Positions 1 through 63,750 of a DNA stretch of 63,750 bases are shown piece by piece (the first letter of the stretch is position 1; the number at the start of each line of letters is the position of its first letter). The stretch is from a virus: IMG/VR virus record IMGVR_UViG_3300045988_109082, one strand, 5' to 3'. Both the position numbers and the translations under genes were made by a program. The notes under the pieces are model-generated. The model searched no databases. It was not told the DNA's origin and worked only from the letters and a program-made list of their open reading frames with translations.

Positions 1-119
1 ATACGGGAGTGTACGGCGTGGCCGTATGGTCGGGAATATTGGGCGTGCCGGTTTCCGTGATTTCTTCGAGTTGGGTGTCCGGCGTGTTGTCGGTCATGTT
101 TTGCTCCGATCAAAAAAAT
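1..119. repeat. Terminal direct repeat copy 1, identical to 63632..63750 (circular closure / assembly overlap)
   Basis: The first 119 nt (atacgggagtgtacggcg...ccgatcaaaaaaat) recur base-for-base as the last 119 nt. Bases 1..97 duplicate the 5' end of the holin-like gene 63456..63728. Confidence 0.95.
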
Positions 120-163
120 AGTGGTGATGCCGCCATCGGGAGTAATGGCGGCATCGGTTGGTT

Positions 164-1315
164 TTAGCGGCAGGTCACCACGTCACCGGGATAGTAGACG
201 TTGATGTTGCCGGAGGGGACGGTGCAGCGGTTGACGTTGTAGCCGTGGGAGGTGGCGAACTCCCATACCGTGTCACCGTACTGGATGGTCTTGGAGACCC
301 CGTCGGACGGTGCGGGGGCGGAGCCCCCGCCGTAGGTGACGACATCGCCCACGTAGTAGCGGTTGATGTCACCGCTTGGCGTGTGCCATGCGGACAGGGG
401 CCATGCGTTGTAGGCTACGGCGAGTCCCCAGATGGTCTCGCCCCACTGCATGACGTAGCTGATGCCTCCAGTGCTGGGAGTGGGCTGGGGAGTGTTCGGC
501 TGCACGGGCGCGGCCGGTGTGGCCGGTGGTGTGGAGTCGCCGGTCGGGTTGGCGTACAAATCCCACTGCCAGCCTTCGCCACGGAAGATGTTGAGGTCGA
601 TGGGACTCCACGTGTTGACCACGCCGGTGCCACTGTACTGTCGCATGGCCTCGCCGTACGCGCCCAGCATCCACGGGTTGGCCTGGTAGCCGGTCGGGCT
701 CATGTTCGCGTACTGCGCGATCCACAAACCGTAGTTGGCGCGGATGTCGCCGGGGATGGTGCCGGCCACGGGGCCGGTGTAGAGCAGCGGCTTGACGCCG
801 CCCGAGAGCCGTTCGCATTCCGCCATGAAGCGGCGCACCCAGTCCCAGTTGCCCCACGCCGGATTATCGTCCATCTCCCAGTCAAGGGCGACGATGCCGT
901 GACGCCAATAGTTGCTGGTGTTGCGGTAGAAGAATTGGGCTTCGGCTTCCGGGTTGCCTCCCATGGCGTAATGGTACAGGCCGAATTTCTTGCCGGATGC
1001 CTGCGCCTGGTAGATCATGCGGTTGGCGTCCGTGTTCACACCGGAGACCAAACAGTTGTTGTTGACCTGTCCGGTGCCCCATGTGGTGCCGACCACGATG
1101 AAATCGGCCTGCATGTTGTACACGTCCGCGCCGCACTGCCAGTTGCTCATGTCCACGCCCTGCATGTCCGCGTGCGCGGTCGCCGGAAGCAGCATCATAC
1201 AGACGGCGGCGACTAGGGCCGTGATCTTGGCGAGCAGACGCTTCCACCACGGCTTGTCCTTGTTTTTAACCAATTTTTCCCCTTTCTCTGAGGTGAATAT
1301 TGTTTTGTGGCCCAC
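164..1315 (-). CDS. Endolysin: GH25 muramidase with N-terminal signal/anchor and two C-terminal LysM-like repeats
   Basis: 383-aa ORF. N-terminus is KDKPWWKR plus a hydrophobic core ending ATAHA. GVDMSNWQ and GLYHYA motifs are typical of GH25. P/T-rich linker, then two LysM-like repeats (YVMQWGETIWGLAVAYN, IQYGDTVWEFATSHGYN). GTG start at 1315; alternative TTG start at 1273 behind AAAGGGG. Confidence 0.85.
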   Translation of the reverse strand: MGHKTIFTSEKGEKLVKNKDKPWWKRLLAKITALVAAVCMMLLPATAHADMQGVDMSNWQCGADVYNMQADFIVVGTTWGTGQVNNNCLVSGVNTDANRMIYQAQASGKKFGLYHYAMGGNPEAEAQFFYRNTSNYWRHGIVALDWEMDDNPAWGNWDWVRRFMAECERLSGGVKPLLYTGPVAGTIPGDIRANYGLWIAQYANMSPTGYQANPWMLGAYGEAMRQYSGTGVVNTWSPIDLNIFRGEGWQWDLYANPTGDSTPPATPAAPVQPNTPQPTPSTGGISYVMQWGETIWGLAVAYNAWPLSAWHTPSGDINRYYVGDVVTYGGGSAPAPSDGVSKTIQYGDTVWEFATSHGYNVNRCTVPSGNINVYYPGDVVTCR

Positions 1316-1359
1316 GGTCGTGGGTCAGGATTATCGGGGCCCACTCGGGGCCGTCAATG

Positions 1360-1389
1360 GAAAAGCCCCACACGGTATGGTGTGGGGCT
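1360..1389 (-). terminator. Intrinsic terminator hairpin after fibre module B
   Basis: AGCCCCACAC-cauacc-GUGUGGGGCU followed by UUUU on the minus strand. Near-identical copy at 4907..4936. Confidence 0.7.
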
Positions 1390-1393
1390 AGAA

Positions 1394-2308
1394 TCAGTCG
1401 ATTTTGTACAGGCGGGGAGTGAACGTCTTATCGACCTCGCCCGTGGTGTTGACGAAAATGTTGCATTGGAGAGTGCCGTCCTTCAAGGTTTTCGGCCCAT
1501 AGTTACGAGGTCCGAACACATTTGCTCCTTCGCTCCCGTCGTCGTGGGAGATATGGGCTTGTATGCCCATCAGCCATGAATTGTTGCCCAGCGGCCAGTC
1601 CGTGGCGTCCATCGTGTACGTTCCCGCATCCACATGCACCACACTGGTCAAGTTATTCCACGAGTCGGTCTCTGTCGTGGTGGAGCCTTTGAACCGGTAC
1701 GTGCCCGGCGATGGTTCCGTGACCATAACACCCGGGTCGGTGCCTAATGTCTTAGGCAGTCCGGTGACACGCGGATACAGGTTCGCTAGTTCATAGCCCC
1801 CCCCCCTAAGGCTCGTGTTGTCGGGTCGCATCCAATCGTGCGCGGTAGTACCGGATTCCAACTGGATTCGGAGGTCGCCGTCCTTCGCGGTGGGCGTGGC
1901 CTCGGTGGAGATGACGTTGAGGAACAGGCTGACGGTGCCGGCAGGGATTGCCATGACACTGTTACCCAAGTTCATTTGGTCTCCCAGTTGCTGCCCCTTG
2001 GCGTCGAGGCACTTGATGTTGAAGCTCAAACCGGCGATACTAGTGCCGCTGAGTTTCACGGTGCCCTGTACCGGGCATGGGAACGTCCACGACAGGCCAC
2101 GCCATTGACCGGTGGCGGTGCCGGTGACGTGCAATGACCCGTCACTGTTGACGGTGGCGGTCAAACCGTTGCCCTCGGCGGGACCATAGGCGAGCAGGTT
2201 ACGGGATTTCACCGTGACTGGAATCCGCTTGCTGATGTTCGGACTGGTTTTCGAGTTGATGGTGACCGTTGTGTTACCGGGTTTCACGCCGGTTACGGAA
2301 ATACCCAT
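1394..2308 (-). CDS. Tail-fibre distal module B (C-terminal half of a Big_2 domain plus putative receptor-binding region)
   Basis: 304 aa behind AAGGAGG. Starts MGISVTGVKPGNTTVTINSK..IPVTV, which matches only the C-half of a Big_2 Ig-like domain. The next ~60 aa are paralogous to 2358..2879. Contains a G10 tract. Confidence 0.75.
   Translation of the reverse strand: MGISVTGVKPGNTTVTINSKTSPNISKRIPVTVKSRNLLAYGPAEGNGLTATVNSDGSLHVTGTATGQWRGLSWTFPCPVQGTVKLSGTSIAGLSFNIKCLDAKGQQLGDQMNLGNSVMAIPAGTVSLFLNVISTEATPTAKDGDLRIQLESGTTAHDWMRPDNTSLRGGGYELANLYPRVTGLPKTLGTDPGVMVTEPSPGTYRFKGSTTTETDSWNNLTSVVHVDAGTYTMDATDWPLGNNSWLMGIQAHISHDDGSEGANVFGPRNYGPKTLKDGTLQCNIFVNTTGEVDKTFTPRLYKID
1797..1806 (-). repeat. 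Homopolymer G10 (C10 on the plus strand) inside fibre module B
   Basis: Codons AGG GGG GGG GGC (R-G-G-G, aa ~168-171). Motif TTAG(10). Confidence 0.95.
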
Positions 2309-2320
2309 GAGGGGCCTCCT

Positions 2321-2354
2321 TGAAATAATGGAAGCCCCTGTTCATGGGGCTTCC
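2321..2354 (-). terminator. Intrinsic terminator hairpin after fibre module A
   Basis: GGAAGCCCC-augaaca-GGGGCUUCC followed by AUUAUUU on the minus strand. Sits between the stop at 2358 and the RBS of the next gene. Confidence 0.6.
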
Positions 2355-2357
2355 GGT

Positions 2358-2879
2358 TTATGCGTATGGCTTGTACGCGTGTGCTTCGCTGCCGGTTTCC
2401 AGCATTGGATACACCGTCGCGTCAACGGGCCTGCCGTTGTTCACTCCGGCCTTGCACTGATAGGTGCTGTTTTCCGATACCGTGAACGTGACAGCCAAAT
2501 TGTGAACTTGATTGTCCAGCACCTTGTATTCGGTCTTGCCGCCTGTGGTAACGGCTACGAATAGGATGATTCCGTCGGGGAGGTTCGCGGCGGATAACGT
2601 GTATTGTCCCGCTGGCAACGGCGTATTATCCGTACTACCCTGATCGGCACGCCCGATTGACGAGGTGCTGGTGCCTTTCACGTGGATGCCACCGTCGGCG
2701 GCGACCGTAAACGTCACGCCATTCTGCGTACCGTTTGGTATCTTCAGCCACATGTTCTTGATCGGGGGTAACACGCGTACTGGAATGGTTTTCGAGACAG
2801 TGCCGGCTTGGATGGTTAGGCTGGTGTCACCCGGGGTCAGGCCGGATACGGCCACCCCCCCCCTAAAAGATTCGTTCAT
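2358..2879 (-). CDS. Tail-fibre distal module A (C-terminal half of a Big_2 domain plus putative receptor-binding region)
   Basis: 173 aa behind AAGGAG. MNESFRG then GVAVSGLTPGDTSLTIQAGTVSKTIPVRV, a Big_2 C-half. Paralogous to the N-terminal part of 1394..2308. G9 tract at codons 6-9. Confidence 0.75.
   Translation of the reverse strand: MNESFRGGVAVSGLTPGDTSLTIQAGTVSKTIPVRVLPPIKNMWLKIPNGTQNGVTFTVAADGGIHVKGTSTSSIGRADQGSTDNTPLPAGQYTLSAANLPDGIILFVAVTTGGKTEYKVLDNQVHNLAVTFTVSENSTYQCKAGVNNGRPVDATVYPMLETGSEAHAYKPYA
2855..2863 (-). repeat. Homopolymer G9 (C9 on the plus strand) at codons 6-9 of fibre module A
   Basis: ATG AAC GAA TCT TTT AGG GGG GGG GTG. Motif TTAG(9). Confidence 0.95.
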
Positions 2880-2884
2880 GATGG

Positions 2885-3595
2885 TTACTCCTTACTGTTG
2901 ATGGGTGCGATGGTCTTGTCGAGGATGTTCGCGGCGAATTCCTGCGGCGCGTAATCCGGCAGGATGTTGACGTTCAGGCTGGCTGTCTCGCCCACCCTCA
3001 ATGTCAACGATTCCGGGGTGACGGTGATGCCGGTCGGTTTCGCGTCGCCAACCACGGCGATATCCGGGCTGGCGGCGCTGGCCGTGAACTCCTGCGATGC
3101 CGCATCGGGCAGGATCGTCACCTTGAGGTTCTTGCTCTCGCCGACGCGCAGGGTGATGTTGTCGATGGGTTTGCCGGAATCGTCCGTGACCTTGATGGAC
3201 TCGGGCGCGTAGGCCGCGCTGATGGACACGGCGGCGGAAGTGAAACCGTTGACCGTGGCCGTCACCAATATGGTTCCGCCATGCCGCCACGTGAGCGTGT
3301 TGCCCGAAACCGTGGCGGTGGAAGTGTCCCGGCTTGTGAACGTCACGTCCTTGGTGGTCAGCAGATCGCCAACATGACCGTCCGCATACGTGGCCTTCGC
3401 CCCCAGTTTCAAAGTGCCGGACACGGCCAGCGACTTGGGCAGCGGCTTGCCCTTATCATCCGTGATCTCGATGGAGACCACCGTGTCCTTGTCCAGCGGC
3501 CATACGAGTTTGCCGTTGAATAGGGCGTTGTACGTGTGGCCGTTCAATAATGGTTTGCCGACACGTTTGCCGGAGTAAAAGGCTGGCATGATCAA
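2885..3595 (-). CDS. Tail-fibre stem protein: one full Big_2 domain plus two orphan Big_2 N-terminal half-domains
   Basis: 236 aa. Full Ig-like segment LAVSGTLKLGAKATYADG...GGTILVTATVNGFTSAAVSISA. It is followed by ITLRVGESKNLKVTILPDAASQEFTASAASPDIAVVGDAK and LTLRVGETASLNVNILPDYAPQEFAANILDKTIAPINSKE, and then a stop codon. Confidence 0.8.
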   Translation of the reverse strand: MIMPAFYSGKRVGKPLLNGHTYNALFNGKLVWPLDKDTVVSIEITDDKGKPLPKSLAVSGTLKLGAKATYADGHVGDLLTTKDVTFTSRDTSTATVSGNTLTWRHGGTILVTATVNGFTSAAVSISAAYAPESIKVTDDSGKPIDNITLRVGESKNLKVTILPDAASQEFTASAASPDIAVVGDAKPTGITVTPESLTLRVGETASLNVNILPDYAPQEFAANILDKTIAPINSKE

Positions 3596-4458
3596 GCCCC
3601 CTTCACAGTGGCCTTGGCTGCGGGCTCCTCCGACACGGTTCCGGCTGGCGTCTCCCCGGCGGAGTCCTTGCCGGTTCCCCCCGTGGTGCCTTCGGTGGTG
3701 CCGGCGGAAGGCAGTTCGGCGGAAGCGCTCTCGGCCTTGTCCTTGACCGCCCGCACCGTCGAATCGATGGCGGCGATGGCCGTCTCGCCCTTCGCCGCGA
3801 CCATGGAAGCGGTGTCGGCCACGGTCTGCGAATCATTGGCGACGGAAGCCGCCGCCATACTGGCGTTCGACGCGAGGACATCCAGATCGGACTGCACGGC
3901 GGTCGCGGAATCCGCGGAGGACCGGGCGCTCAGCATGGCGCTCTTCGCCAAAGCGGCGTTCGTCTGCGCTTCGGCCGTGATGGACTCCAGCGTGCTCAAG
4001 GCCGCAGCGGCCTTCGCGGTCGTGGCGGTTTCGTCGAAGAACACCAGCTCGTCCGGGTATTGTGCGGAAAGTGTCTCCGCCTCCGACTGGGTGGAAGCGT
4101 GGCGAACCTTCAGCAGTTGGGAGCCTGTCATGTCCTTCGGTACGAACGTGGCGGCGTCAACCTCCACAAGGTCAGCGTACTCGACCCTGGCCTGGGAGTC
4201 CGGCACCTCGACGTAACGCGTGTACGCCTGCGGCGAATCCGCCAGTTCCACAACCTGCCACACAAACGCAGGAGTCGTGGGCAGCAGGTCAACCGTCAGC
4301 TCGCCGCTTTCGGACAGGTCCGCGTCGAACGAGGCCGCGATAATAAGATTCTTCGCCGCGTCGAAATGGCGACGCACCGGGCGGAACCGCATCAGGCCGG
4401 TGACCGGGTCCAAGCCGCCGGTCTTCGGCTTCCTAATGGAAATATGGATTTGGGTCAT
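3592..4458 (-). CDS. Minor tail / fibre protein (Ala/Ser-rich, coiled-coil-like C-terminal half)
   Basis: 288 aa. ATGA overlaps with both neighbours. Position within the tail-tip module. Confidence 0.65.
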   Translation of the reverse strand: MTQIHISIRKPKTGGLDPVTGLMRFRPVRRHFDAAKNLIIAASFDADLSESGELTVDLLPTTPAFVWQVVELADSPQAYTRYVEVPDSQARVEYADLVEVDAATFVPKDMTGSQLLKVRHASTQSEAETLSAQYPDELVFFDETATTAKAAAALSTLESITAEAQTNAALAKSAMLSARSSADSATAVQSDLDVLASNASMAAASVANDSQTVADTASMVAAKGETAIAAIDSTVRAVKDKAESASAELPSAGTTEGTTGGTGKDSAGETPAGTVSEEPAAKATVKGA

Positions 4459-4886
4459 TACTGTTCCTCCTTATTGGATTCGATTGTTTCGGGGGCCACG
4501 TCCGGGCGAAGCTCGTCCGGCAGCGATGGCTTGGGATGACGTTTCAAAAACTCGGGTTCCGTCACTTCGCAGAACGATTGCAGCCAATGGAACAGGCCAC
4601 GCACATAGGCCACGATCTTGAAATACTTGCGTTGCACCTCCTCCAAATGCTGGATTTGGGTCTCCTGAAAAGCGACCTGCTCACGCAACGGGTCGATGAT
4701 GCTTTCCGTGAGAATCTTCACGGCCTTGTCGGCCGCGTCGGCGGTGATGCCGTCGATATCGGCCTCGGTTTTCCTGCTGTTCGACCACGCGCCGACCAGT
4801 CCGCCGATGCCGCCACCGCCGAGGAGCGCGAGAATCAACGCGCTCCAAAACTCGGCGCTTGAAAACAGGTCATGAAAAGGGGACAT
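4458..4886 (-). CDS. Membrane-anchored coiled-coil protein, function unknown
   Basis: 142 aa. N-terminal TM-like segment WSALILALLGGGGIGGLVGAW. First gene after the terminator at 4907..4936. Confidence 0.6.
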   Translation of the reverse strand: MSPFHDLFSSAEFWSALILALLGGGGIGGLVGAWSNSRKTEADIDGITADAADKAVKILTESIIDPLREQVAFQETQIQHLEEVQRKYFKIVAYVRGLFHWLQSFCEVTEPEFLKRHPKPSLPDELRPDVAPETIESNKEEQ

Positions 4887-4906
4887 TCAGTGTCCTTTCG
4901 AATATG

Positions 4907-4936
4907 GGAAAGCCCCACACGATATGGTGTGAGGCT
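4907..4936 (-). terminator. Intrinsic terminator hairpin, paralog of 1360..1389
   Basis: AGCCUCACAC-cauauc-GUGUGGGGCU followed by UUUCCC on the minus strand. Confidence 0.65.
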
Positions 4937-5006
4937 AAGTCAACTGACTATCGTCAGGCGTTACGTATTATGCTTACAACAAACGGCAAGGCGGGACACG
5001 TCCACT

Positions 5007-5702
5007 TCACGCCATACGCAACCGCGCATAACGCGAAACACCTTCAACCCCTAACGATGCGTCACGCCAACGCAGACTATTACCAGACGAATCATTGCCG
5101 ACAATGGAAACCGTGCCCCAATGAAACGTCGTGAGCTTCACCGTGTACGAGCCGTAAGGCAACCGCACAGAACCGGAAGCAACCCACCTCAACGTGCCGC
5201 CGTTCTTCTGCGGCGACGTGGAACACCAATACGCTTTACGCTCACCGTTCGCGTCCAAGAAGTCGAACGCCATACTGTATTCGCCGGTACCGCTGATCGC
5301 GGCCGCAACCTCGCACAGGATAAGCCCCCCGCAAGTAACAGTCGCAGTCTTCTCAAGATAACCACTCTCAGGCTCAGTCCCAGGGGTACCACTCCACGTG
5401 CTCGACCACTCAAACAAGGGGGAGCATCCGCACCCCGGACGCGCAAGGATGCCGGTGACGATGGCGACTTTCGCGTAGGTTTCCACCACGCACCTGTCAC
5501 CGGCTCGGGCTCCCACACAATCCGTGGTCATCTGCAATCCCATGAGCGTGCCGCCGCTCATATCCACGTCAGCGGTCCAATACCCTCCTGTGTCGTACAC
5601 CGTGTTGATGGTGCCGATGCGCGTGATGGTGGCTTCCGCCCCCACTTGGGAGGGCATGATTTCGGCCAGACGATTGCCGGCCCTTATCAGGTTCGACTGC
5701 AT
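5007..5702 (-). CDS. Tail-tip protein, function unknown
   Basis: 231-aa ORF directly abutting the upstream stop, within the tail-tip module. Confidence 0.65.
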   Translation of the reverse strand: MQSNLIRAGNRLAEIMPSQVGAEATITRIGTINTVYDTGGYWTADVDMSGGTLMGLQMTTDCVGARAGDRCVVETYAKVAIVTGILARPGCGCSPLFEWSSTWSGTPGTEPESGYLEKTATVTCGGLILCEVAAAISGTGEYSMAFDFLDANGERKAYWCSTSPQKNGGTLRWVASGSVRLPYGSYTVKLTTFHWGTVSIVGNDSSGNSLRWRDASLGVEGVSRYARLRMA

Positions 5703-6830
5703 TTATGCCTTCACTGTTGTTGGTTCGCTTGGACGCTGGAAGGTACGGGCCTCGCATTCGATGGGAATACCGGCCTCCAAAGTGATATTCTGCGCGCGTA
5801 TCGCAAACCTGCCGGAAACCGAGCCGGTCGGATACTCCAAGTCCACCACGTCGGTCAGATTCAAAGGAGCGTACACGTGCGTGAACGTGACCCTGTGAAT
5901 CACGGATTGTTCGGTGCGTAGCAGTTCCAACGCCTTGTCCGAGGCGAGTTTCCTGCCTTGCTCGTCGGTAGTCACCTCGTCGGGGATGCTGGAATACTCG
6001 TAGGCGTGAGCCACCCTGCGGCCACGGCTGACAGTGCTGAACTCCGAAGCCGGGTCATCGTCAATCGCGGTCGAAACGTATTCCTTGTCCGTGTTGTAGT
6101 AGGTGACCTTCACCACGTTCGCCACCTCACGCAGGTCGCGTTCGTCGGTCATGGTGGTGAGGAACGTGGCGTTCGCACCCTCCTGAAACGTCCATTTCGG
6201 CTGGCGTTTGCCCGGCTCCACATACTTCTCCAATATGACGCGCCCGTACTCGTCGGTTCTCGCACTGGAGTATCCGGCCAAATCCAAGAGATCGTTCACC
6301 GCGTCAAGCTTGGTGCTGCCCTTGTCCTTGTCCTTATCGGACCTCAAACCGAACGTCCAATTATCCTTCAGCGTGTAATTGCCGGGATTGTAGGCCGCGA
6401 CCTGAAGCCCGCATCCCTTGAGGATGTCGGCGGCGGCGGTCACGGCCTTCTTGCCCTTGCCTATCGTTATCGGCGACTCGAACATGTCGTCATCGACTTC
6501 TTGCAGCAGCCCGTACAAATCCAGTTGGCTGGAAGATTCCTTGCCGTTCACGCTGCGCTTGGGGATGTTGGGAAGGAACGTGCCCAACGGCACACTTGCC
6601 GTGGAACCGTCATGCCACGTGCAGTCGGCCCATATCCGTAGCCGGTCGGTGCCCAGGTCGGTCGCCCCCTCCACGGTCAGGGAACCGGATTCGCAGATAT
6701 TGGTGTCCTGGTTGCGTTCGATGCTGCCCCCGGATATCACCCAATCCAACCGTCCGGTCTCCAAACCCGTGTTCCTGTTGACTCGCATCACACGGTAGGC
6801 GACCTTGAAAGGCTTGCTCCAATCACTCAT
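5703..6830 (-). CDS. Tail-associated (Tal/baseplate-like) protein
   Basis: 375 aa counted from the ATG at 6830, which forms an ATGA overlap with the upstream stop. Position follows the Dit-like gene. Confidence 0.65.
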   Translation of the reverse strand: MSDWSKPFKVAYRVMRVNRNTGLETGRLDWVISGGSIERNQDTNICESGSLTVEGATDLGTDRLRIWADCTWHDGSTASVPLGTFLPNIPKRSVNGKESSSQLDLYGLLQEVDDDMFESPITIGKGKKAVTAAADILKGCGLQVAAYNPGNYTLKDNWTFGLRSDKDKDKGSTKLDAVNDLLDLAGYSSARTDEYGRVILEKYVEPGKRQPKWTFQEGANATFLTTMTDERDLREVANVVKVTYYNTDKEYVSTAIDDDPASEFSTVSRGRRVAHAYEYSSIPDEVTTDEQGRKLASDKALELLRTEQSVIHRVTFTHVYAPLNLTDVVDLEYPTGSVSGRFAIRAQNITLEAGIPIECEARTFQRPSEPTTVKA

Positions 6831-9097
6831 AGGACGGGCTCCTCCCATGTCAATTGGGTTAGGTCGGCGGAATAGCTGATGTTCTTCTTGTCCGCGATGT
6901 CAACGCTCACGGACTGTTCCGCCTTCACGTAGACACGCAGGCCGGAAGGCTCCCGATACCATGCGTAAGGGTATCCGTCAGCCAACGAGAGTATCCGCAG
7001 CCACAACGCTTGGTCCCACTCCCATACGCCGGTGACGCTCACCGTGGAATCCAACTGGTCCAATTCGTAGCTGGAAGGCAGAGCATTCGCCCCGTCGCCC
7101 CGCGCGAAATGAAACTCGCTGGTCGAATGGGAACGCTTATGAGACACCGTGTTGTTATAGCCGAGCAATAACGTCTGACCCGCATCCGTGCCGAAGTTCA
7201 ACACTCCGAACCCGGATTCGATGCGCGCGTCCACCATGCGTGCGATGGTCGTGCCCATAGCCGAATACGCGACCACCCTGTAATGGAAGTCGGTGTTCAA
7301 CGGGGGAATGGGGTCCACGGCCAACTGCTGGTCCAACAGGTTCGAGGCGATAAGCACCTCCGAACCGTCAGGCATGACACGGATGACGGATGCGCTGACC
7401 GTCTCCGACTGGCCTTCCTCCGGCACGCCGAACGACACGATGACCAACGCCGCGTAATCATTGTTCGACTCTATCGCGGCCATCGGCTCGGCCGGGTCCG
7501 GCCAGTCCCCGTCCCTCCCGACGCTCGTGCTGGATTCCAAGCCGGAACCGCCGCGCACCACGAGCGTGATGGTCAACGTCGAATTGTTGTTCGGCAGATA
7601 CTGGCTTGCGCCGATGCTCAGGCTTCGCGTGGAACCGTCCATCGTCTTCCGGTATTTCTCCACGCCGTCCGACTGGATGATGAGCGTCTGCGAGCTGACG
7701 CCCGTATCGTCCGCCACGGTCCACGCCACGGTGAACGGTGTCGCCGTAATGGTGCCGGAAGGCTTGTTGATGCTGATGTTCGGATATTTCGCGACCGTGA
7801 AGGTCACGTAGTTCGACCATGCGCCCCAGTCGGCGTGGATACCCTTGGTGCGCACGCGAATCCTATACGAGCCGCAGCTTTTGGGCGTGCGCTGATAACT
7901 GGTGTTCGTGGTCTGCTCTTCGATGACCGTAACGTCCGAGGGGTCGGTGACCTCCACCTGCGCGGCGGATTGGGCGGAACCGTCAGGATGATTCGGTTTC
8001 CAAGCGACCGTCATCGGCTGATTGACAACATACGCGCCGTTCTGCGTCGGGTTCAGAATCGTCGGCGCGGAAGGGGCCACGGCCGTCTGGATAGTGTTGC
8101 TGTACGTCCAGTCGGAGAAGAGCGTGGTCTTGGAGTTGTCATCGCCGTAGACAGGTCTTCCCACTAACGCCGCGTACTGGACTTGGCCCGCAGGAGCTGC
8201 GGTGTCGGTCCACGTGACGTTCTGGATTCCGTTTATGTCGGGAAGCCAGCCTTCGGCCGTCGCACCGGGGGTGCCTCCGGTTATGTCGGCCCATTCGCCG
8301 CCGTTCACCCTGCGCCGCAGTCTGATGCCATACACATACGATTTCGACGCATCCACGGTCACGCGCACGGACTGTTCGGACAGTTTCACCGCGTTCACCG
8401 CCACGGGGGCGGCCGGCGTCGTGTAGATGTAGCCCGAGTACACATGGTCGGACACTCCGCCAGGGTTCTGGGCCGCGACACGGAACTGGTATCGGGCGTT
8501 CGCCTTCAACCCCGTGTACGAATAGTTCAAGGCGTCCCAGTTCAACGCCTTGACCAGACCCCACGCGCCTTGTGTGCCGCCGTTCAAGCCGACGCACTGG
8601 TCTGCGTAGATCTGCTTCCAATATTTTCGCGCCGCATTATCATAGTTCGACTGCCATGCGGCCTTCACGCTTGAATCATTGACCCGCGTCCATGATACGT
8701 TCTTCGGCGGGTTCGGTTTCGCATACGTGATGCCGGGAACCGTGAGGTTCACATGCGCTTCCGACCGTCCCGGCAAACCATATGGGATGTTCAGGAACGC
8801 GCGGCAGGAGAACGTCTGCGCGGACTCCTGCTTCGTGACGGTCACTTGCTGGGTGTGTAAATCCACGTCGCCGTTGAAGGACCGGTAGCCGAAGTTCACC
8901 GTGTTCGTGCTCGTGCTCACGCCATTGACCCAAGCGCCACCGGACACGGCATCGGACGCCACCCAGCGCGACGGGTCGGTGCGACGGTAGATGATGTGCA
9001 CGCCTATGACGGCCTGTGTCGCGTTCTGCGAGACGATATCGGCTTGTACGCAGCAACGCCAGCCGCCGCCGATGATATTGCCGGCACCTTCAACCAT
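6827..9097 (-). CDS. Distal/minor tail protein with FN3-like repeats
   Basis: 756 aa. First gene after the tape measure. Repeated ~90-aa segments with a P..V.W...... pattern (PPKNVSWTRVNDSSVKAAW, APVAVNAVKLSEQSVRVTV). Confidence 0.7.
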   Translation of the reverse strand: MVEGAGNIIGGGWRCCVQADIVSQNATQAVIGVHIIYRRTDPSRWVASDAVSGGAWVNGVSTSTNTVNFGYRSFNGDVDLHTQQVTVTKQESAQTFSCRAFLNIPYGLPGRSEAHVNLTVPGITYAKPNPPKNVSWTRVNDSSVKAAWQSNYDNAARKYWKQIYADQCVGLNGGTQGAWGLVKALNWDALNYSYTGLKANARYQFRVAAQNPGGVSDHVYSGYIYTTPAAPVAVNAVKLSEQSVRVTVDASKSYVYGIRLRRRVNGGEWADITGGTPGATAEGWLPDINGIQNVTWTDTAAPAGQVQYAALVGRPVYGDDNSKTTLFSDWTYSNTIQTAVAPSAPTILNPTQNGAYVVNQPMTVAWKPNHPDGSAQSAAQVEVTDPSDVTVIEEQTTNTSYQRTPKSCGSYRIRVRTKGIHADWGAWSNYVTFTVAKYPNISINKPSGTITATPFTVAWTVADDTGVSSQTLIIQSDGVEKYRKTMDGSTRSLSIGASQYLPNNNSTLTITLVVRGGSGLESSTSVGRDGDWPDPAEPMAAIESNNDYAALVIVSFGVPEEGQSETVSASVIRVMPDGSEVLIASNLLDQQLAVDPIPPLNTDFHYRVVAYSAMGTTIARMVDARIESGFGVLNFGTDAGQTLLLGYNNTVSHKRSHSTSEFHFARGDGANALPSSYELDQLDSTVSVTGVWEWDQALWLRILSLADGYPYAWYREPSGLRVYVKAEQSVSVDIADKKNISYSADLTQLTWEEPVL

Positions 9098-9134
9098 GAC
9101 AAACCTTTCTTGACGATGTTAGGAAACAGGAGGA

Positions 9135-9172
9135 AACCGTTGCAAGCTGAAACAAACTGGCTTGCAACGGTT
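9135..9172 (-). terminator. 13-bp hairpin immediately after the tape-measure stop
   Basis: AACCGUUGCAAGC-12 nt-GCUUGCAACGGUU followed by UCCUCCUGUUUCC on the minus strand. Confidence 0.5.
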
Positions 9173-9181
9173 CTCTGACGG

Positions 9182-12100
9182 TCAGCGCGGACGCATGTTG
9201 CGTTTCCGGGTGGCGGAAGCGACAAGGGTTTCCACCGCGTCGGCTATCCTCCGGTCGGAGGACTCCACGCCGTTGATAGTCACCGTGTTGTTCGTCGTGT
9301 TCCCCGTATTCGCGGGAAGTTCGACCTTTATCACCGGGTTGACTTCGACATTCCACGAGCCGTTCGCCGTGGATACGCGGCCACCGGTCGCATACGCCTG
9401 AGACTTCCTGCGAGCGTTCAACGCGAACGCGGACGGTTGCATGGCTTTCTCCACACTGCCGACCGCGTTCAACGTGTTCAGGAAACTCCTGCCATACAAG
9501 GCGTCAATCTTCTTGACGGCTGCGGCACGAAGCACCATCTCACCATTGGACAGCATCGCCGGAATCGAATCGGAAGTGGAAGTACCGGGACCATAGATAC
9601 GACCACCGGTAGCATGACCGCCACCCCCGGATATCGTGTCGATGAAAGCCGTCCATGTGCGACCAGCGATTGACCGCAGAGTGGATAGCAGGTTCGACGC
9701 GACATCCAAAGCGTTGCCCATCGCATTCAACGTCGTGGAATGATAGGTGGGCACCTTGCCGATCATGCTTCGTGCCGTTCCGGCAAACGATGGCGTATTG
9801 CCGAGACCCGTAAACATGGACAACCACTGCTGAGGAATATTCCGAACCGCATTATTGGCGATGTTGGAAAACAGCGTCGTATTGCCGGAACCAGTCAATA
9901 TAGACTGCCACTGCTGAGGAATGCTCTCAACGGCGTTCTTCGCGATACCGGATGGGCCACTGGTGCCATCAAGTCCGAACAGCCACGACCACCATTCATG
10001 GGGAACACTGAACACGTTCGCCTTAGCGGACTCGGTGCCCTCGCTGGTGTTATCGACGGCGCTGACGAGAATATTATTCTCAGCGAGCTTTTCACCATCG
10101 GACTCCCTATAGGAGGCGAGTTTCACCTGAGCGTCATCATCGTCGGCGTCGATGTTGAAGCTGACGCCCTTGGCGGCGGGAACCTTATTCTTCTCCACGT
10201 CCTTTATCTTGCCGGAAGCGTGGTCGATACAGTCGAGAATCCACTGTATCTGCTCGTCGGTCAGGTTCAGATAGCCGAGCTCGTCCCTGACCTTCTGCAT
10301 GCGCTCCTCAGCGTTGCCCTCACCTGAGAACAGCCACTTGTAGGCTTTCTTGGACATGCCGAGAGCAAGAAGATTCTCCTTGACCTCGCCTGTCTCCCAG
10401 CGAGCATTGCCCTTCGCGTTCAACAGCAATGTGAGGTCCCTCTCGGACAAGTCGCCTTTCATCAGCTGCTCAACAAGACTGAGAACACCGTCCAACGTGG
10501 TGACCACTCCAGCTTCACGTAGCCGGATAACGATCTCTTTCTCACCATCGGTCAGACCGGATATGCCCTGCACGAGCTTATCCACCGCATCTTGGGCGAT
10601 TTCCGAATGAGCGGTGATCGTGGTACCCACATCAGAGGGAATCAGACCAAGCGAATCAGCGTACCTTTCAGCAGCTTCCTCACTCATGCCAGCGGCCTGA
10701 GCCTGCTGCACGATGGCCTCACGCGCCTCATAAATGGAGTTTGCGGCCTTCTGCGTGTACTCCTCCACCTGACCGTTCTTCTCACCATAGGAGAGAAGCT
10801 GATGGGCGGACAGCAACGCGGTAGCGGCCACATCCTTCATCGCCTTGTCGGTGCGCACATAGGCGGCGTTGTTGGCGTCAGCCAGTTCGCCGTTTTCCTT
10901 GAACGCCTGACCGTTCGCCTTGACCGTCGTGGCGAGCGAGCTGAGCTTGTCGGACAGCGCGGAGGAGGAATCGGAGATCTGTTCGAGGGAACGCAGATAT
11001 TTCATCTGCTCCTTGACGGATTTCTCCAAGCCTTCCTTGTGCTGCTTCTTCAACGCCTGCAACAGCGTGTCGGCGGCGATGGCGGCATCGGTCTGCTTCT
11101 CGACCATCATGCCGTACTGGTCGCTGGCCTTGTATGTCTCCTTGCTTTGCGCCTCCAACTGTTTGACGAGCTTCTTGTAGCCGGCCTCGTTGCCGCTGAC
11201 CGCATCGGTCAGCGTACTGGTATTGATGCCCAGACGTTTGGCCGCGTCGGCTGCGGACGTGTAGCCGCCGCTGACCTTGACGAGCCATTCAGTGACCGCG
11301 CCGCCACCGTCCTTTCCGAACAGGAGCGACGGGTCATCCCACTGTTTCGTGGTCTCCGACTTGAAATCGTTGAACGCGTCCGCCGCCTCCTTGGCGTTGG
11401 ACTTGATGCCCTTCATGCCGTCGAGGACCTTGTCCATCGCCTGCTTGGATGCTTCCGCCTTCGTCGTGTAGTCGGATATCGCATTGCCGATGACGGCGAT
11501 GCCCGCGCTGATTCCCAGACCGGCAACCGTCGTCCAGCCGCCGAACGCATCCCACAGGTTCTTCACGCCGGTCTTCAACGAACCGAACCTGCCGGACTGC
11601 TGTTCGGCCTGCTCCCCGGCCGAACGGATGGAGGCGATGGCCTGACCGTTCGCACCGACCAAGCCGCCCATGTCCTTGGAAGTCTCCTTGGCAGCGTTCC
11701 CCGGAAGGAGCAGCTTCTTCGAGTTAGCTTCCGCCGCCATGCCGAGGGAATTGACCTCGCTGATGGCACCGGACAGAATACCCGCATAATTGCCGGAACG
11801 CAACTGGTTCATCGCCTTAATCAGGGTGCCCATTTTCACGGACGCCTGTTCGGCGCTCAAACCCAGTTCGCTGAGCATCTTCTGGTATCGCATCGTGGAC
11901 TGGATGTTCTGCAACATGCCGGTCTTCAACGACTCGAACGCCGTCTTGCCCGCACGACCGAACGTGGCCCACAATGTGATGATGCTTTTCACCGGCCCCG
12001 GCAACGAGTCGAACGCTTGGGCCACGCCGGTGGCACCCTTGGCGATGGTGCTGATAAGCGGGCTCACGGTACGCAAAGCGGACGCGAACGTGCCGCCGAA

Positions 12101-15046
12101 CGTGCGCGACAACTGGCCCACCATGCTCGCCAAATCGGAGAACATGGGGCCCGCGTCACCCACCGCGTCAAACACCTGGCTGAACCCGTCGCGGACACCG
12201 GAACTGAAATCGCGGATTCCACCACCGGACTGCTGCAACACGCGACTCAACCCAGTGATGCCCTCGCCTACGATCTGGCCCGCGTCACCGAACACCGCGC
12301 GAGTGGTGTCCTTCAACGAGTACGCGGCGTCGCCAATATCCTTGAAAGCGTTGCGCATCTTGTCCTGCGCGTCCTGCGCACCAGCGCTCCAAGCCTCCAA
12401 AGTCTCTTGGAACTTGATGGTGTGAACGGCCTTGTTGGCTTTCTCCAAAGCCTCGGAAAAACCTTGGATACCGTTCTCGGTCTTCGCCAGAGTACCCAAC
12501 GTGCCCTCAAACACGCCTATCAGGTCGAACACGGACGATTTCAGATAGCCGCCCTGTTCGATGGCCTTTTCCATCGCCTTAGAGACTTGACCGGTACGTT
12601 CGGCGGTATCCACCCAGTTCGCCCACTTCTCGGCCACGTCGGAAATGTAGGAGGCCATGCGGGGCAGATACTGGCTGGACTGGTCGCCCAAGCCGAGGAA
12701 CGCGCGGGCCAGTGACTGCAAGCCCGGGTTCAGTTCGGACACCGCGAGACGAGTGTTCTCGAAGATACGCGGTAGTTGGTCGGCTTCGTTCGACTGGCGC
12801 ACCACGTCGATAAGCCCGTTGAGCACCTTGCCTTCCTCGACGGCGATACCGTTCAAACCCTTGGACAGTGAGGGGGCCACGTCGTTGGCGAGACGGTACA
12901 GGTTATCCCCGTACTCGTTCCAAGCGTTGTCGCCCAACTCCTTGTTCAGGTTCGCCAGCGAGGTCTTGGTGACATCGAACTTTTCCTTCAAATCACCGAA
13001 CACCCGGTAGCCCACGTAGCCTGCGGACGCCAGACCAGCCAACGCGGCGGGAGCGGCCAACGCGGCCTTGCTCATGGACACGAGGCTGACGCCGACACCG
13101 CCCGCAGTGCGTCCCAGGTTCAGGAGTCCGGCACCCAACGCGGTGACGCCGGCACCGAGAATCGACCACTTGGGAACCACCTTGTCGAGCTTGTCGAACA
13201 GGTTCACAAGACTGTCGAACTGGTTCTGCACGCCCTTCAAACCGGTCGCACCACTGGTCATGCCGGAGAAAATCTTGCCAAGGTCTGTGCCCTTGAAATT
13301 AGCGAAGATGTCGATGGTGCGGGGGCGGGTGAAGTAGGCGAGATGGGCTCGGGCCACCGCGGTCTCCAAGTCCAAATCCATCTTCAGCTCGTCGTTCTTG
13401 TCCTCGAATTTCTTCAGCTTCTCCTCGGCGCGATGCATTTGCAGGTCGAGGTCGGCTTCAAGCTCCCAACGACGTTCGGGATTGGCTTTGATCTTGGCGG
13501 CGGTCTCACGCATCGACGCGATGATTCGTTCCTGATCGACCTGCCAGTCCACGGGAATGTCGAGGCGCGTATGACGCAGCTTCTCCAACCGGGCTTCGAG
13601 CTTGTCGGCGTTGTCCTCCCACACCTTGACGCGGACGTTGACCTCATGCTCCCGGTCGAGTTTGGCGCGCAGCTTCTCCGCGTCATACATCAGTTCCGCG
13701 TATTTTTTGTCCCATTGGGTCTTATCCAATGTGGCTTTGGCGGTGATCGGCTTGCGGGATGCGAAGTCGCGCAGCTTCTTCAGCTGGTCGAAGGTATTGT
13801 TGAGCTCCTTGCCGAGGTTCTTGTCGATGCCCATGGGCTTGAACTTCTGGAACGCGGCGGAAAGCGCGTTGATCTGGGTCTCCTGCTCGTCGAACAGGCT
13901 GGTCAGTTCGCGGGCGGTCTTGCGCTGCTTGTCCATCGTGCGGCGCGAATCGTTCTGTACCGCGTTGAGGCGTTTGACGCTGGTTCCCGTGTCTTCGAAC
14001 ACCTCGGCCAACGCCTTCTGGCCGGCCGTGAGCTTCGACAGCTGCTGGAGCTGCCTGCGGTTCAGCTTCTCGGACTTCTCCTCAAGGTCGAGAATCTTGT
14101 TCAGGCCGGAGAACAGCCGGTCGTTCTCACGGTTGAAGTCTTTGAGCCGCGCCTTGCGCATGAGCTCGGCGTCCGAATACTTGGAGATGGCGTCGGTCGC
14201 CTTCTCCCACTTCTTGGTGTTGGAGTCGATAAGACGCTGCTGTGCCGCTACCTTGTTGTCGAAATCGGCGGAGAAGAGCTTGTTCTGCGCCTTCTTGTTC
14301 TCCGCTATCTCCTTGCCTACCGCCTTCAGGTCGGCTTTCAGGCCCTTGAGCTGTTCGCGCAGCTCGGGGATGCGACTGTTCTTGTACCAGTTCGCGGTGT
14401 CGATGTTCCCGGCCTCGCGCAGCTCCTTCATCTTCTTGATGGACCAGTCAAGGGTCTTACTGACATCGGCTTGGCTGCGGGTCAACTGCTCCTGACGTTT
14501 GCGCCCGTTCTCGATGGCCTCCGCGTACATGTCGTAGGCGGCGTGCTCGTCCTTGATGAGCATGGTCTGCCTGCGGGATGCGGCCGTGGCCTCCTTGTCG
14601 TAGAGGGCGCGTGCCGAACGCATGCGGGAGAGACTGTCCTGAAGACTGTCGGCCACGGATTTCTGCGACTTCTTGACGAACGCCTCCGTCTGGCCGGCGG
14701 TCCGCTTGATCTGGTTGGAAAGCCGGTGAATCTTCTCATTGAACGACGTATCGTCCAAGTCGAACCTGCTTGTGACCGGCTTCTTCTCCCACTGCTTCCG
14801 CTGGGCCTGCATGGCCTTGTCGATGGCACGCAAGCCGGACGGGTCGCCGTCGATCTTCACCACGTTGGTGAGGGTCTTGCCGTCAAGGTCGCGCATCTGC
14901 TCCTTGGCGCGTGCGACGCCCTTCGTGTTCACATCAACGGTGACCTCAGGGTGACGAGAATGCAGTTCCGCATTGAGAATCTTCCAGAAATTATCGGTGT
15001 CCGGGCGAATATCGACGCCGACCGCGCCAGCGGAATACAAGGCCAT
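9182..15046 (-). CDS. Tape measure protein
   Basis: 1954-aa ORF between the chaperone genes and the tail tip. Long coiled-coil N-terminal third, multiple hydrophobic stretches, C-terminal GGRIYGPGTSTSDSIPAMLSNGEMVL motif. Confidence 0.9.
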   Translation of the reverse strand: MALYSAGAVGVDIRPDTDNFWKILNAELHSRHPEVTVDVNTKGVARAKEQMRDLDGKTLTNVVKIDGDPSGLRAIDKAMQAQRKQWEKKPVTSRFDLDDTSFNEKIHRLSNQIKRTAGQTEAFVKKSQKSVADSLQDSLSRMRSARALYDKEATAASRRQTMLIKDEHAAYDMYAEAIENGRKRQEQLTRSQADVSKTLDWSIKKMKELREAGNIDTANWYKNSRIPELREQLKGLKADLKAVGKEIAENKKAQNKLFSADFDNKVAAQQRLIDSNTKKWEKATDAISKYSDAELMRKARLKDFNRENDRLFSGLNKILDLEEKSEKLNRRQLQQLSKLTAGQKALAEVFEDTGTSVKRLNAVQNDSRRTMDKQRKTARELTSLFDEQETQINALSAAFQKFKPMGIDKNLGKELNNTFDQLKKLRDFASRKPITAKATLDKTQWDKKYAELMYDAEKLRAKLDREHEVNVRVKVWEDNADKLEARLEKLRHTRLDIPVDWQVDQERIIASMRETAAKIKANPERRWELEADLDLQMHRAEEKLKKFEDKNDELKMDLDLETAVARAHLAYFTRPRTIDIFANFKGTDLGKIFSGMTSGATGLKGVQNQFDSLVNLFDKLDKVVPKWSILGAGVTALGAGLLNLGRTAGGVGVSLVSMSKAALAAPAALAGLASAGYVGYRVFGDLKEKFDVTKTSLANLNKELGDNAWNEYGDNLYRLANDVAPSLSKGLNGIAVEEGKVLNGLIDVVRQSNEADQLPRIFENTRLAVSELNPGLQSLARAFLGLGDQSSQYLPRMASYISDVAEKWANWVDTAERTGQVSKAMEKAIEQGGYLKSSVFDLIGVFEGTLGTLAKTENGIQGFSEALEKANKAVHTIKFQETLEAWSAGAQDAQDKMRNAFKDIGDAAYSLKDTTRAVFGDAGQIVGEGITGLSRVLQQSGGGIRDFSSGVRDGFSQVFDAVGDAGPMFSDLASMVGQLSRTFGGTFASALRTVSPLISTIAKGATGVAQAFDSLPGPVKSIITLWATFGRAGKTAFESLKTGMLQNIQSTMRYQKMLSELGLSAEQASVKMGTLIKAMNQLRSGNYAGILSGAISEVNSLGMAAEANSKKLLLPGNAAKETSKDMGGLVGANGQAIASIRSAGEQAEQQSGRFGSLKTGVKNLWDAFGGWTTVAGLGISAGIAVIGNAISDYTTKAEASKQAMDKVLDGMKGIKSNAKEAADAFNDFKSETTKQWDDPSLLFGKDGGGAVTEWLVKVSGGYTSAADAAKRLGINTSTLTDAVSGNEAGYKKLVKQLEAQSKETYKASDQYGMMVEKQTDAAIAADTLLQALKKQHKEGLEKSVKEQMKYLRSLEQISDSSSALSDKLSSLATTVKANGQAFKENGELADANNAAYVRTDKAMKDVAATALLSAHQLLSYGEKNGQVEEYTQKAANSIYEAREAIVQQAQAAGMSEEAAERYADSLGLIPSDVGTTITAHSEIAQDAVDKLVQGISGLTDGEKEIVIRLREAGVVTTLDGVLSLVEQLMKGDLSERDLTLLLNAKGNARWETGEVKENLLALGMSKKAYKWLFSGEGNAEERMQKVRDELGYLNLTDEQIQWILDCIDHASGKIKDVEKNKVPAAKGVSFNIDADDDDAQVKLASYRESDGEKLAENNILVSAVDNTSEGTESAKANVFSVPHEWWSWLFGLDGTSGPSGIAKNAVESIPQQWQSILTGSGNTTLFSNIANNAVRNIPQQWLSMFTGLGNTPSFAGTARSMIGKVPTYHSTTLNAMGNALDVASNLLSTLRSIAGRTWTAFIDTISGGGGHATGGRIYGPGTSTSDSIPAMLSNGEMVLRAAAVKKIDALYGRSFLNTLNAVGSVEKAMQPSAFALNARRKSQAYATGGRVSTANGSWNVEVNPVIKVELPANTGNTTNNTVTINGVESSDRRIADAVETLVASATRKRNMRPR

Positions 15047-63455: not shown

Positions 63456-63728
63456 CTACTTGCCGGCCATGCGTACGGGGTTGTATGCGACTCCGAATCC
63501 TGCGGCGATGATGCCTGCGGCGGTACTGATGAAACCGCCGATTTCGGGGGAGCCGAAGCTCATGAACCCGAGTCCGATGACCGAGGCGACGAGCGTGACC
63601 ACGTAGATGACGGTGCGCACCGTGTCATTGAATACGGGAGTGTACGGCGTGGCCGTATGGTCGGGAATATTGGGCGTGCCGGTTTCCGTGATTTCTTCGA
63701 GTTGGGTGTCCGGCGTGTTGTCGGTCAT
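63456..63728 (-). CDS. Holin-like protein (two TM segments)
   Basis: 90 aa. TM1 VIYVVTLVASVIGLGFMSF, TM2 IGGFISTAAGIIAAGFGVAY. Immediately downstream of the endolysin on the circular map. Confidence 0.65.
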   Translation of the reverse strand: MTDNTPDTQLEEITETGTPNIPDHTATPYTPVFNDTVRTVIYVVTLVASVIGLGFMSFGSPEIGGFISTAAGIIAAGFGVAYNPVRMAGK

Positions 63729-63750
63729 GTTTTGCTCCGATCAAAAAAAT
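63632..63750. repeat. Terminal direct repeat copy 2, identical to 1..119
   Basis: See 1..119. Confidence 0.95.

Follow-up and report, generated by a model that had tools for sequence, protein, structure and literature searches.

A probable polyguanine contingency tract at a domain boundary of a small tail protein in a Bifidobacterium phage group

Introduction

Hypermutable polyguanine (polyG) tracts in genes of the Campylobacter Fletchervirus phages reportedly give rise to phenotypically mixed progeny, a finding attributed to Sorensen et al. (2021, Cell Rep 35:109214; cited in PMC12823448 and PMC10877375). Here we describe a run of ten guanines (G10) at positions 1,797 to 1,806 of the 63,750-nucleotide viral sequence IMGVR_UViG_3300045988_109082 from IMG/VR; this whole stretch of DNA is referred to below as the window. 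The run lies in the middle of a 304-residue open reading frame (ORF), which we term module B, whose neighbor, module A, is a paralog with a G tract of its own. Based on a comparison with 173 distinct relatives, we consider it likely that this run, which is conserved among them, acts as a slipped-strand contingency locus, switching the distal domain of a small tail protein in a Bifidobacterium siphophage or prophage.

Related devices have been described both in the bacterial host genus and in other phages. Tracts of G10-G12 in the sortase-dependent pilus genes of B. breve are ON/OFF switches that operate by replication slippage (Penno et al., 2022; PMC9187656). The heterogeneity of those tracts was verified by Maximum Depth Sequencing, and their lengths in databases were often wrong or the genes split (PMC9187656). 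In coliphages (T2/T4 and others), short homopolymers form contingency loci at which reversible frameshifts serve bet-hedging, with runs of at least 6 nt in genes such as agt and rIIA and with simple sequence repeats under-represented in tail-fiber genes (Gomez, Barrick and Waters, 2025 preprint; PMC12633550). Tail diversification in bifidoprophages integrated at dnaJ2 has been described in the form of the Rin shufflon, in which a tyrosine recombinase inverts DNA at short repeats (Mavrich et al., 2018; PMC6109161). Tracts, slippage and frameshifts are unmentioned in the bifidophage literature that we searched, including PMC6109161, and a polyG switch has apparently not yet been described for this phage group.

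Results

The G10 tract and its reading frames

The tract is C10 on the plus strand and G10 on the coding (minus) strand of module B, where AGC CTT AGG GGG GGG GGC TAT GAA CTA encodes S-L-R-G-G-G-Y-E-L, residues 164-172 of the 304. The G10 state of the window is in frame (ON). With G9 the frame would read GCT ATG AAC TAG, and with G11 it would read CTA TGA (Table 1). An initial interpretation made from the letters of the window, which we call the sequence-only reading, had given this same sequence and these same two frames, with both stops two to three codons beyond the tract, and was exact on each point.

Considered by itself, the window places the tract only marginally beyond chance. From base composition, a stretch of this size is expected to hold about 0.17 runs of C and 0.16 runs of G of at least 10 nt (about 0.33 together), and in 100 dinucleotide shuffles G9 gave a mean of 0.65 matches, with the observed number of three being reached in 6 of the 100. 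Only two homopolymers of at least 8 nt are present in the 63.75 kb, the G10 tract and a G9 tract at 2855-2863; each consists of G on the coding strand, and the two genes that hold them are adjacent paralogs.

Variation of tract length among relatives

Protein-guided retrieval of 80 IMG/VR loci revealed a tract at the same place, with differing lengths. To obtain a census free of frame bias, we used DNA anchors on either side of the tract with a variable gap between them, and applied these to IMG/VR and to human-gut metagenome contigs. IMG/VR yielded 78 distinct sequences (33 in frame, 45 out) and the gut contigs 119 (46 in frame, 73 out), their union being 173 distinct sequences, in all of which the tract is at the same codon position. 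The longest G run was mostly 7-10 nt and the anchor-to-anchor gap was 13-21 nt. The length polymorphism expected of a switch was seen, as 107 of the 173 copies (62%) were out of frame and 66 (38%) in frame, an in-frame share no different from a random one-third (p=0.20).

Loss of frame at the tract was not accompanied by decay of the sequence beyond it. An open frame of 131 codons or more for the distal domain, D2, was found in 94 of 102 out-of-frame copies, compared with 59 of 66 in-frame copies (92% vs 89%), as would be expected if switching is reversible. In addition, eight pairs of sequences from different assemblies had identical 628-nt flanks and differed solely in the tract; comparisons of this type span identical flanks of 628-828 nt, with tract length as the sole difference. 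Among pairs with 1-6 flank mismatches the tract differed in 12 of 16, more than one tract variant was found on 18 of 153 flank haplotypes, and there were no insertions or deletions (indels) at all in the flanks of near-identical pairs. The tract evolves far faster than its surroundings. Out-of-frame states were also present in NCBI genome assemblies and in contigs of 21-34x coverage; 5 of the 11 contigs with coverage of at least 8x were out of frame, including those at 21x, 29x, and 34x.

Conservation of the off-frame stops

A stop codon was located two to four codons past the tract in 44 of the 45 out-of-frame IMG/VR loci. The off-frame TGA was kept in 65 of the 68 relatives found by protein searches, and a stop was present at the TAG position in 66 of the 68. 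The codon that creates the TGA ended in T at 65 of 67 loci despite changes in the encoded residue (TAT, GGT, TGT, and AGT, for Tyr, Gly, Cys, and Ser, respectively), while the leucine codon that creates the TAG was CTA or TTA in 66 of 66 loci; together CTA and TTA represent 3.8% of the leucine codons in the structural genes of this phage. Similarly, GGG represents 9.7% of the glycine codons in the phage, and lineages with as little as about 55% protein identity still have the pure G-run. The surroundings are conserved as well, with the 60 nt around the tract forming the most conserved nucleotide stretch of the gene (column identity of 0.90-0.92 vs 0.63-0.90 elsewhere).

The use of rare codons bears out the suggestion of the sequence-only reading that the off-frame stops look designed rather than accidental. 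Based on the rare-codon stops, the run of rare GGG codons and the conserved surroundings, both reading states appear to be under selection, with a short product that would end cleanly at a domain boundary. These sequence patterns argue that both frames are visible to selection.

Predicted architecture of module B

The AlphaFold2 (AF2) model of full-length module B was mediocre (predicted local distance difference test score, pLDDT, of 65) and contained two all-beta domains, at about residues 45-151 (D1) and 185-299 (within D2). The tract residues, 166-169, are inside a low-confidence linker between them, and D1 is kept in the truncated product. When modeled alone, the C-terminal 133 residues gave a pLDDT of 86.9 and a predicted template modeling score (pTM) of 0.79, and this confident prediction indicates an independent fold, the lack of which would, according to the sequence-only reading, have counted against the switch. 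The best match of the full model in PDB was a tandem pair of CBM22 carbohydrate-binding modules (E 7e-5, low TM-score). The matches of D2 in BFVD were predicted proteins of uncultured phages named "Tail fiber protein" and "Receptor binding protein" (E 1e-4 to 8e-4, TMq 0.46-0.56). The position of the gene and this weak-to-moderate structural similarity suggest that D2 may have the role in receptor-binding specificity that was earlier proposed for it. No Pfam family was found for module A, module B or D2, and a PDB sequence search returned nothing beyond a marginal match to an S-layer immunoglobulin (Ig) domain.

D2 is highly conserved, with many invariant residues, and its family is narrow, comprising 57 representative clusters at E<=1e-3; its distant hidden Markov model matches are in large proteins in which there were no informative Pfam domains. 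It also occurs in other contexts. In two proteins (P0146 and P0152) D2 follows a different 50-residue N-terminus, joined exactly at the NLYPR motif with which D2 begins; P0152 (L272, 6001-6543) is a 180-residue protein encoded after the collagen-like fiber genes of another prophage type, and D2 on this alternative N-terminus likewise sits just before a lysin gene. In another phage (P0215) D2 is fused directly to the N-terminal part of the protein encoded upstream of modules A and B, which we refer to as the upstream Big_2 protein. In sequence, the NLYPR junction beside the tract looks like a domain-swap recombination point.

Module B matches two PHROG families, phrog_35081 (residues 2-181) and phrog_35108 (residues 186-304), the latter also including the body of module A. 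The sequence-only reading had described module B as having a shared N-terminus and a unique C-terminus; the part clearly shared with module A is only about residues 2-66, at 43% identity, and the C-terminus is not unique, because its 133 residues belong to the same phrog_35108 as the module A body and are widespread in related phages. PHROGs keeps the N and C parts of the gene as separate families, which fits reference genomes that were annotated in the split state. In addition, hundreds of database "proteins" of 110-146 residues (among P0121-P0240) are C-terminal halves called from out-of-frame copies, and are an annotation artifact produced by the tract. Separate translation of D2 in out-of-frame copies was considered and rejected as a conserved feature, since the first in-frame start, M195, is not conserved.

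The module A tract and the split Big_2 domain

Long homopolymers in related loci have a highly restricted distribution. In 541 kb of such loci, 106 of 111 homopolymers of at least 8 nt were G on the coding strand, and three sites account for nearly all of them: one in the linker of module B, one at codons 6-9 of module A, and one at the corresponding position of a divergent, A-like paralog. All four ON/OFF combinations of an A-type tract with the module B tract were found (counts of 6, 5, 3, and 6), as were all four for the A-like type with module B (19, 10, 7, and 9), and the Fisher tests of these states were not significant. The state of an A-type tract is independent of that of the module B tract. 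Hence the four fiber states that had been foreseen from the two tracts of the window all exist in relatives, at the level of assembled consensus sequences. We also observed the design TTTA followed by G9-11 in a paralog of approximately 40% identity in relatives (for example L051, about 2845-2860), where the lengths were 8-12.

The modules share a further feature with the gene upstream of them, as a Big_2 domain is divided between separate proteins. The C-terminus of the upstream protein alone covers positions 3-49 of the 79 in the Big_2 profile; when it was artificially concatenated with the N-terminus of module B the match extended over 3-72, and with that of module A over 3-75. This Big_2 domain (PF02368, ~79 residues) is not complete within a single polypeptide, and module B alone gives no Pfam match. 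The strands at residues 2-18 of module B had pLDDT values below 50 when modeled alone with AF2. This split is maintained in relatives, with 5-170 nt between genes that are separate in every case and that each have their own ribosome-binding site (RBS). We rejected the possibility that frameshifting or readthrough fuses the upstream Big_2 gene to the modules, since a stop codon intervenes and the modules have an RBS and a start of their own, here and in relatives. As judged from sequence, the split Big_2 domain suggests that alternative distal modules may dock non-covalently by strand complementation.

Genome context

The ends of the window overlap exactly over 119 nt (1-119 vs 63632-63750), which shows the window to be a contig closed into a circle of 63,631 bp; the size of the overlap suggests an assembly with k=119. 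Read along the minus strand, the genes encode, in order, the tape-measure protein (1954 residues), tail proteins, a 288-residue protein with a weak minor-tail match, the upstream Big_2 protein, module A, module B and lysin, which places module B between the tape-measure and tail genes and the lysin gene. Modules A and B presumably have the upstream Big_2 protein as their stem or docking partner. Module B has its own AAGGAGG in front of its ATG, which marks it as a separately translated gene (Table 1). As a terminator-like hairpin follows its stop codon and a promoter-like site (1357-1330, minus strand) is located ahead of the lysin gene, truncation of module B would not affect any downstream gene of its unit. 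A terminator-like hairpin is also present after module A.

Table 1. Coordinates of the tract, domains and neighboring genes in the window.
Feature	Position	Strand	Remarks
GH25/LysM lysin	164..1315	-	
Terminator-like hairpin	1364..1389	-	10-bp stem + TTTT, directly 3' of the module B stop
Module B, 304 aa	1394..2308	-	Half Big_2, beta domain D1, G-tract linker, beta domain D2
Domain D2, predicted all-beta distal domain from NLYPR, residues 176-304	1397..1783	-	Lost when out of frame
Inter-domain linker holding the tract, residues 153-179	1772..1852	-	AF2 pLDDT <50
Off-frame TAG	1786..1788	-	Read after tract loss of 1 nt or gain of 2
Off-frame TGA	1791..1793	-	Read after tract gain of 1 nt or loss of 2
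G10 homopolymer, candidate contingency tract	1797..1806	-	Codons R166-G169
Domain D1, predicted all-beta, residues about 45-151	1856..2176	-	AF2 strands E48-151, block pLDDT 59-84
Module B residues 1-33, second half of Big_2 domain	2210..2308	-	First half ends the upstream protein (2885..3595)
Shine-Dalgarno-like AAGGAGG	2315..2321	-	6 nt 5' of module B ATG (2306-2308)
Module A, 173 aa, paralog neighboring module B	2358..2879	-	Half-Big_2 start as in module B
G9 tract, module A codons 6-9	2855..2863	-	In frame in the window
Upstream Big_2 protein, 236 aa	2885..3595	-	C-terminus = first half of Big_2 domain

Among inverted repeats, just one was notable, a palindromic hairpin element of 34 nt that resembles a terminator and is present twice (1357-1390 and 4904-4937, 91% identical), its two copies bracketing the block from a 142-residue gene to module B. 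Similar AGCCCCAC...GTGGGGCT hairpins are found between fiber genes of relatives (L065 and L069, about 3950-3975). These elements may be recombination boundaries of modules, or may just be related terminators.

We identified 1902 homologs of module B and, where source names were given, these were Bifidobacterium catenulatum or B. breve. The homolog in B. breve CP118083.1 (L270; protein P0063) belongs to a prophage adjoining dnaJ/hrcA, which is the setting of the dnaJ2-integrated bifidoprophages described by Mavrich et al. (PMC6109161). The same locus contains a 289-residue tyrosine recombinase on the opposite strand (2436-3305), among small ORFs in the tail region. This is probably the Rin shufflon of Mavrich et al., and some phages may, therefore, combine switching by G-tracts with inversion. 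Searches of 50,697 phage records with module B DNA and protein (blastn, tblastn) gave no match. A scan of GTDB species-representative genomes gave pattern matches, none of which was borne out by tblastn.

Discussion

Proposed mechanism

We propose that slipped-strand mispairing during DNA replication, either by the host replisome in the prophage state or in phage replication, adds or removes guanines at the tract. In-frame lengths (G10 or G7 after CTTA; G9 after CTTAA) would produce the 304-residue protein with its half-Ig anchor, D1 and D2, while other lengths would lead to one of the two conserved off-frame stops two to four codons on and a protein of approximately 170 residues that lacks D2. 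A lineage would then steadily yield progeny with two alternative tail-tip forms, based on the resemblance of D2 to an exchangeable tail-fiber-tip domain, and the independent tract of module A would raise the number of forms to four. The idea that the tract toggles the distal domain independently of module A, which was first put forward in the sequence-only reading, is supported by the length polymorphism, the near-identical backgrounds that differ in the tract alone, the intact D2 frame, the conserved off-frame stops, the predicted D2 fold and the four combinations of states. We infer that replication slippage is the cause, that switching is reversible within a lineage, that the short form is stable and incorporated into the virion, and that adsorption or host range is affected as a consequence. 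Indels in homopolymers may also be poorly corrected in the Bifidobacterium host. The combination of a random frame state with a conserved D2 fits a prophage, because tail genes are unselected in lysogeny and would be sorted only at infection.

Several observations weigh against this interpretation. The in-frame share of 38% is compatible with a switch on which selection fluctuates or is relaxed (as in a prophage), and also with a mutational hotspot that is tolerated. In a small number of out-of-frame relatives the tract is short and interrupted (for example CTTAGGGGTGCTAT), and these copies look locked rather than switchable. The length variation was seen between assembled consensus sequences, many of them of low coverage, and G-tracts are troublesome for Illumina sequencing (PMC9187656). 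Lastly, D2 had no significant match in PDB by Foldseek (best E 0.05, mostly carbohydrate-binding modules, CBMs), and, therefore, terms such as lectin or CBM denote just a loose likeness of fold.

Alternative explanations

The alternative that survives best, and which we nevertheless consider improbable, is that the tract is a tolerated mutational hotspot, in which the G-run merely encodes a glycine linker, D2 is dispensable, and frameshifts are near-neutral, especially in prophages. The random in-frame share, the copies locked out of frame and the fact that decay is common in prophages are all as expected from such a hotspot. Against neutrality, the D2 frame is as intact in out-of-frame as in in-frame copies, and D2 is highly conserved, with many invariant residues. 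A neutral linker would also not be expected to keep a pure run of the rare GGG, unbroken by synonymous changes over such a range of protein identity, or to hold the off-frame stops in place with rare codons, and the same design is found at two further sites in paralogous genes.

A second alternative, to which we assign a slightly lower probability, is programmed recoding, either by slippage of RNA polymerase on the G-run or by ribosomal frameshifting at CUU AGG G, with the length of the DNA tract tuning the ratio of long to short product. The Ty1 +1 frameshift site is CUU-AGG-C, and the start of the module B tract is similar, with the rare codon AGG following CUU. Transcription can slip on long homopolymers (Atkins et al., 2016; Penno et al., 2015; both cited in PMC9187656), and partial, constant expression of D2 would easily explain why the frame is random while D2 is conserved. 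Against recoding, variation in length is directly observed in the DNA, and tract length differs among relatives, which have no slippery motif of fixed sequence and length. The off-frames end after two to four codons with no extended, conserved alternative ORF. In about half of the relatives, AGG is replaced by AAG, AGT, ATG or GAG, and for this reason we do not regard a Ty1-like +1 frameshift at CUU-AGG as conserved. Recoding can coexist with slippage in the DNA.

The least probable of the three is a sequencing or assembly artifact, with one true length per phage and all variation resulting from short-read homopolymer errors: many contigs do have only 1-5x coverage, the length distribution is skewed to contractions, and Penno et al. 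(PMC9187656) report Illumina trouble and mis-annotated lengths at Bifidobacterium G-tracts, but an out-of-frame share of 62% among 173 distinct sequences is far beyond any consensus error rate, well-covered contigs are out of frame too, near-identical pairs have no flank indels, split ORFs occur in NCBI assemblies and PHROG family definitions as well, and selection on the off-frame stops implies that the off-frames are translated in nature. A DNA-inversion shufflon of the Rin/Min/Gin/Cin type was rejected for the window, as its genes are all on one strand with no recombinase and no inverted cassettes (1-9200), and none of the ORFs from 164 to 15046 matched a recombinase family.

A possible combinatorial tail tip

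Returning to the tract as a slipped-strand switch, a broader possibility can be raised, which we regard as tentative and as clearly less likely than the switch itself. The half Big_2 domain of the stem might be completed in trans, through beta-strand complementation, by module A, the A-like module or module B, with the independent G-tracts choosing among the modules stochastically and module B perhaps docking as either its long or its short form. Such a combinatorial tail-tip system may be undescribed so far. If it exists, it would combine split-domain docking with contingency switching at several loci, on top of the Rin shufflon in some relatives.

Implications

The human gut, particularly that of infants, is rich in Bifidobacterium prophages. 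If the tail-tip switch proposed here is correct, any lysate of such a phage would be a mix of adsorption types, and the annotation of the module genes in reference genomes as a single ORF or as two would be arbitrary, as is already the case in PHROGs and many database entries. No permissive plaque hosts were identified for the dnaJ2-integrated prophages that could be induced (PMC6109161), and a combinatorial tail tip, if true, might partly explain this difficulty of finding permissive hosts for bifidophages. With the switch, the known range of phage polyG contingency loci would also reach beyond Campylobacter myoviruses and include temperate phages whose host is a Gram-positive commensal, a bacterium that uses the same device for its own pili. 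The conserved off-frame stops would provide a clean signature of selection on both states that could be used to find such switches elsewhere.

Comparison with known systems

The likeness to the Fletchervirus phages lies in phage-encoded polyG tracts, several per genome, within tail or receptor-binding genes, a role that for module B is suggested by the position of the gene and the resemblance of D2 to predicted tail-fiber and receptor-binding domains. It is a likeness of mechanism only, as the searches of the 50,697 phage records detected no homology to Campylobacter phage proteins. Fletchervirus phages are lytic myoviruses, whereas here the host is a high-GC, Gram-positive actinobacterium and the relatives are integrated prophages. 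Unlike the Fletchervirus tracts, that of module B, which is known here from sequence alone, is situated at a domain boundary, would remove the distal domain only and is accompanied by conserved off-frame stops.

The B. breve pilus tracts belong to the same host genus and are also G runs on the coding strand inside coding sequences, with a length that decides downstream translation (PMC9187656). Those tracts are chromosomal and near the 5' end of the gene, so that the whole protein and its operon are switched ON or OFF, whereas the module B tract is in the middle of a phage tail gene and would produce a truncated isoform. The Rin shufflon is found in related phages, in the same neighborhood, and diversifies receptor-binding parts of the tail, a purpose that the tract would also serve, although its mechanism is inversion and not homopolymer slippage. 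In contrast to the coliphages, the long runs in the Bifidobacterium phage are confined to tail-tip genes. In sum, the features that appear to set this locus apart are the placement of the tract in a linker, where it would toggle the distal domain only, the off-frame stops held by rare codons, and the presence of several independent tracts in neighboring paralogs.

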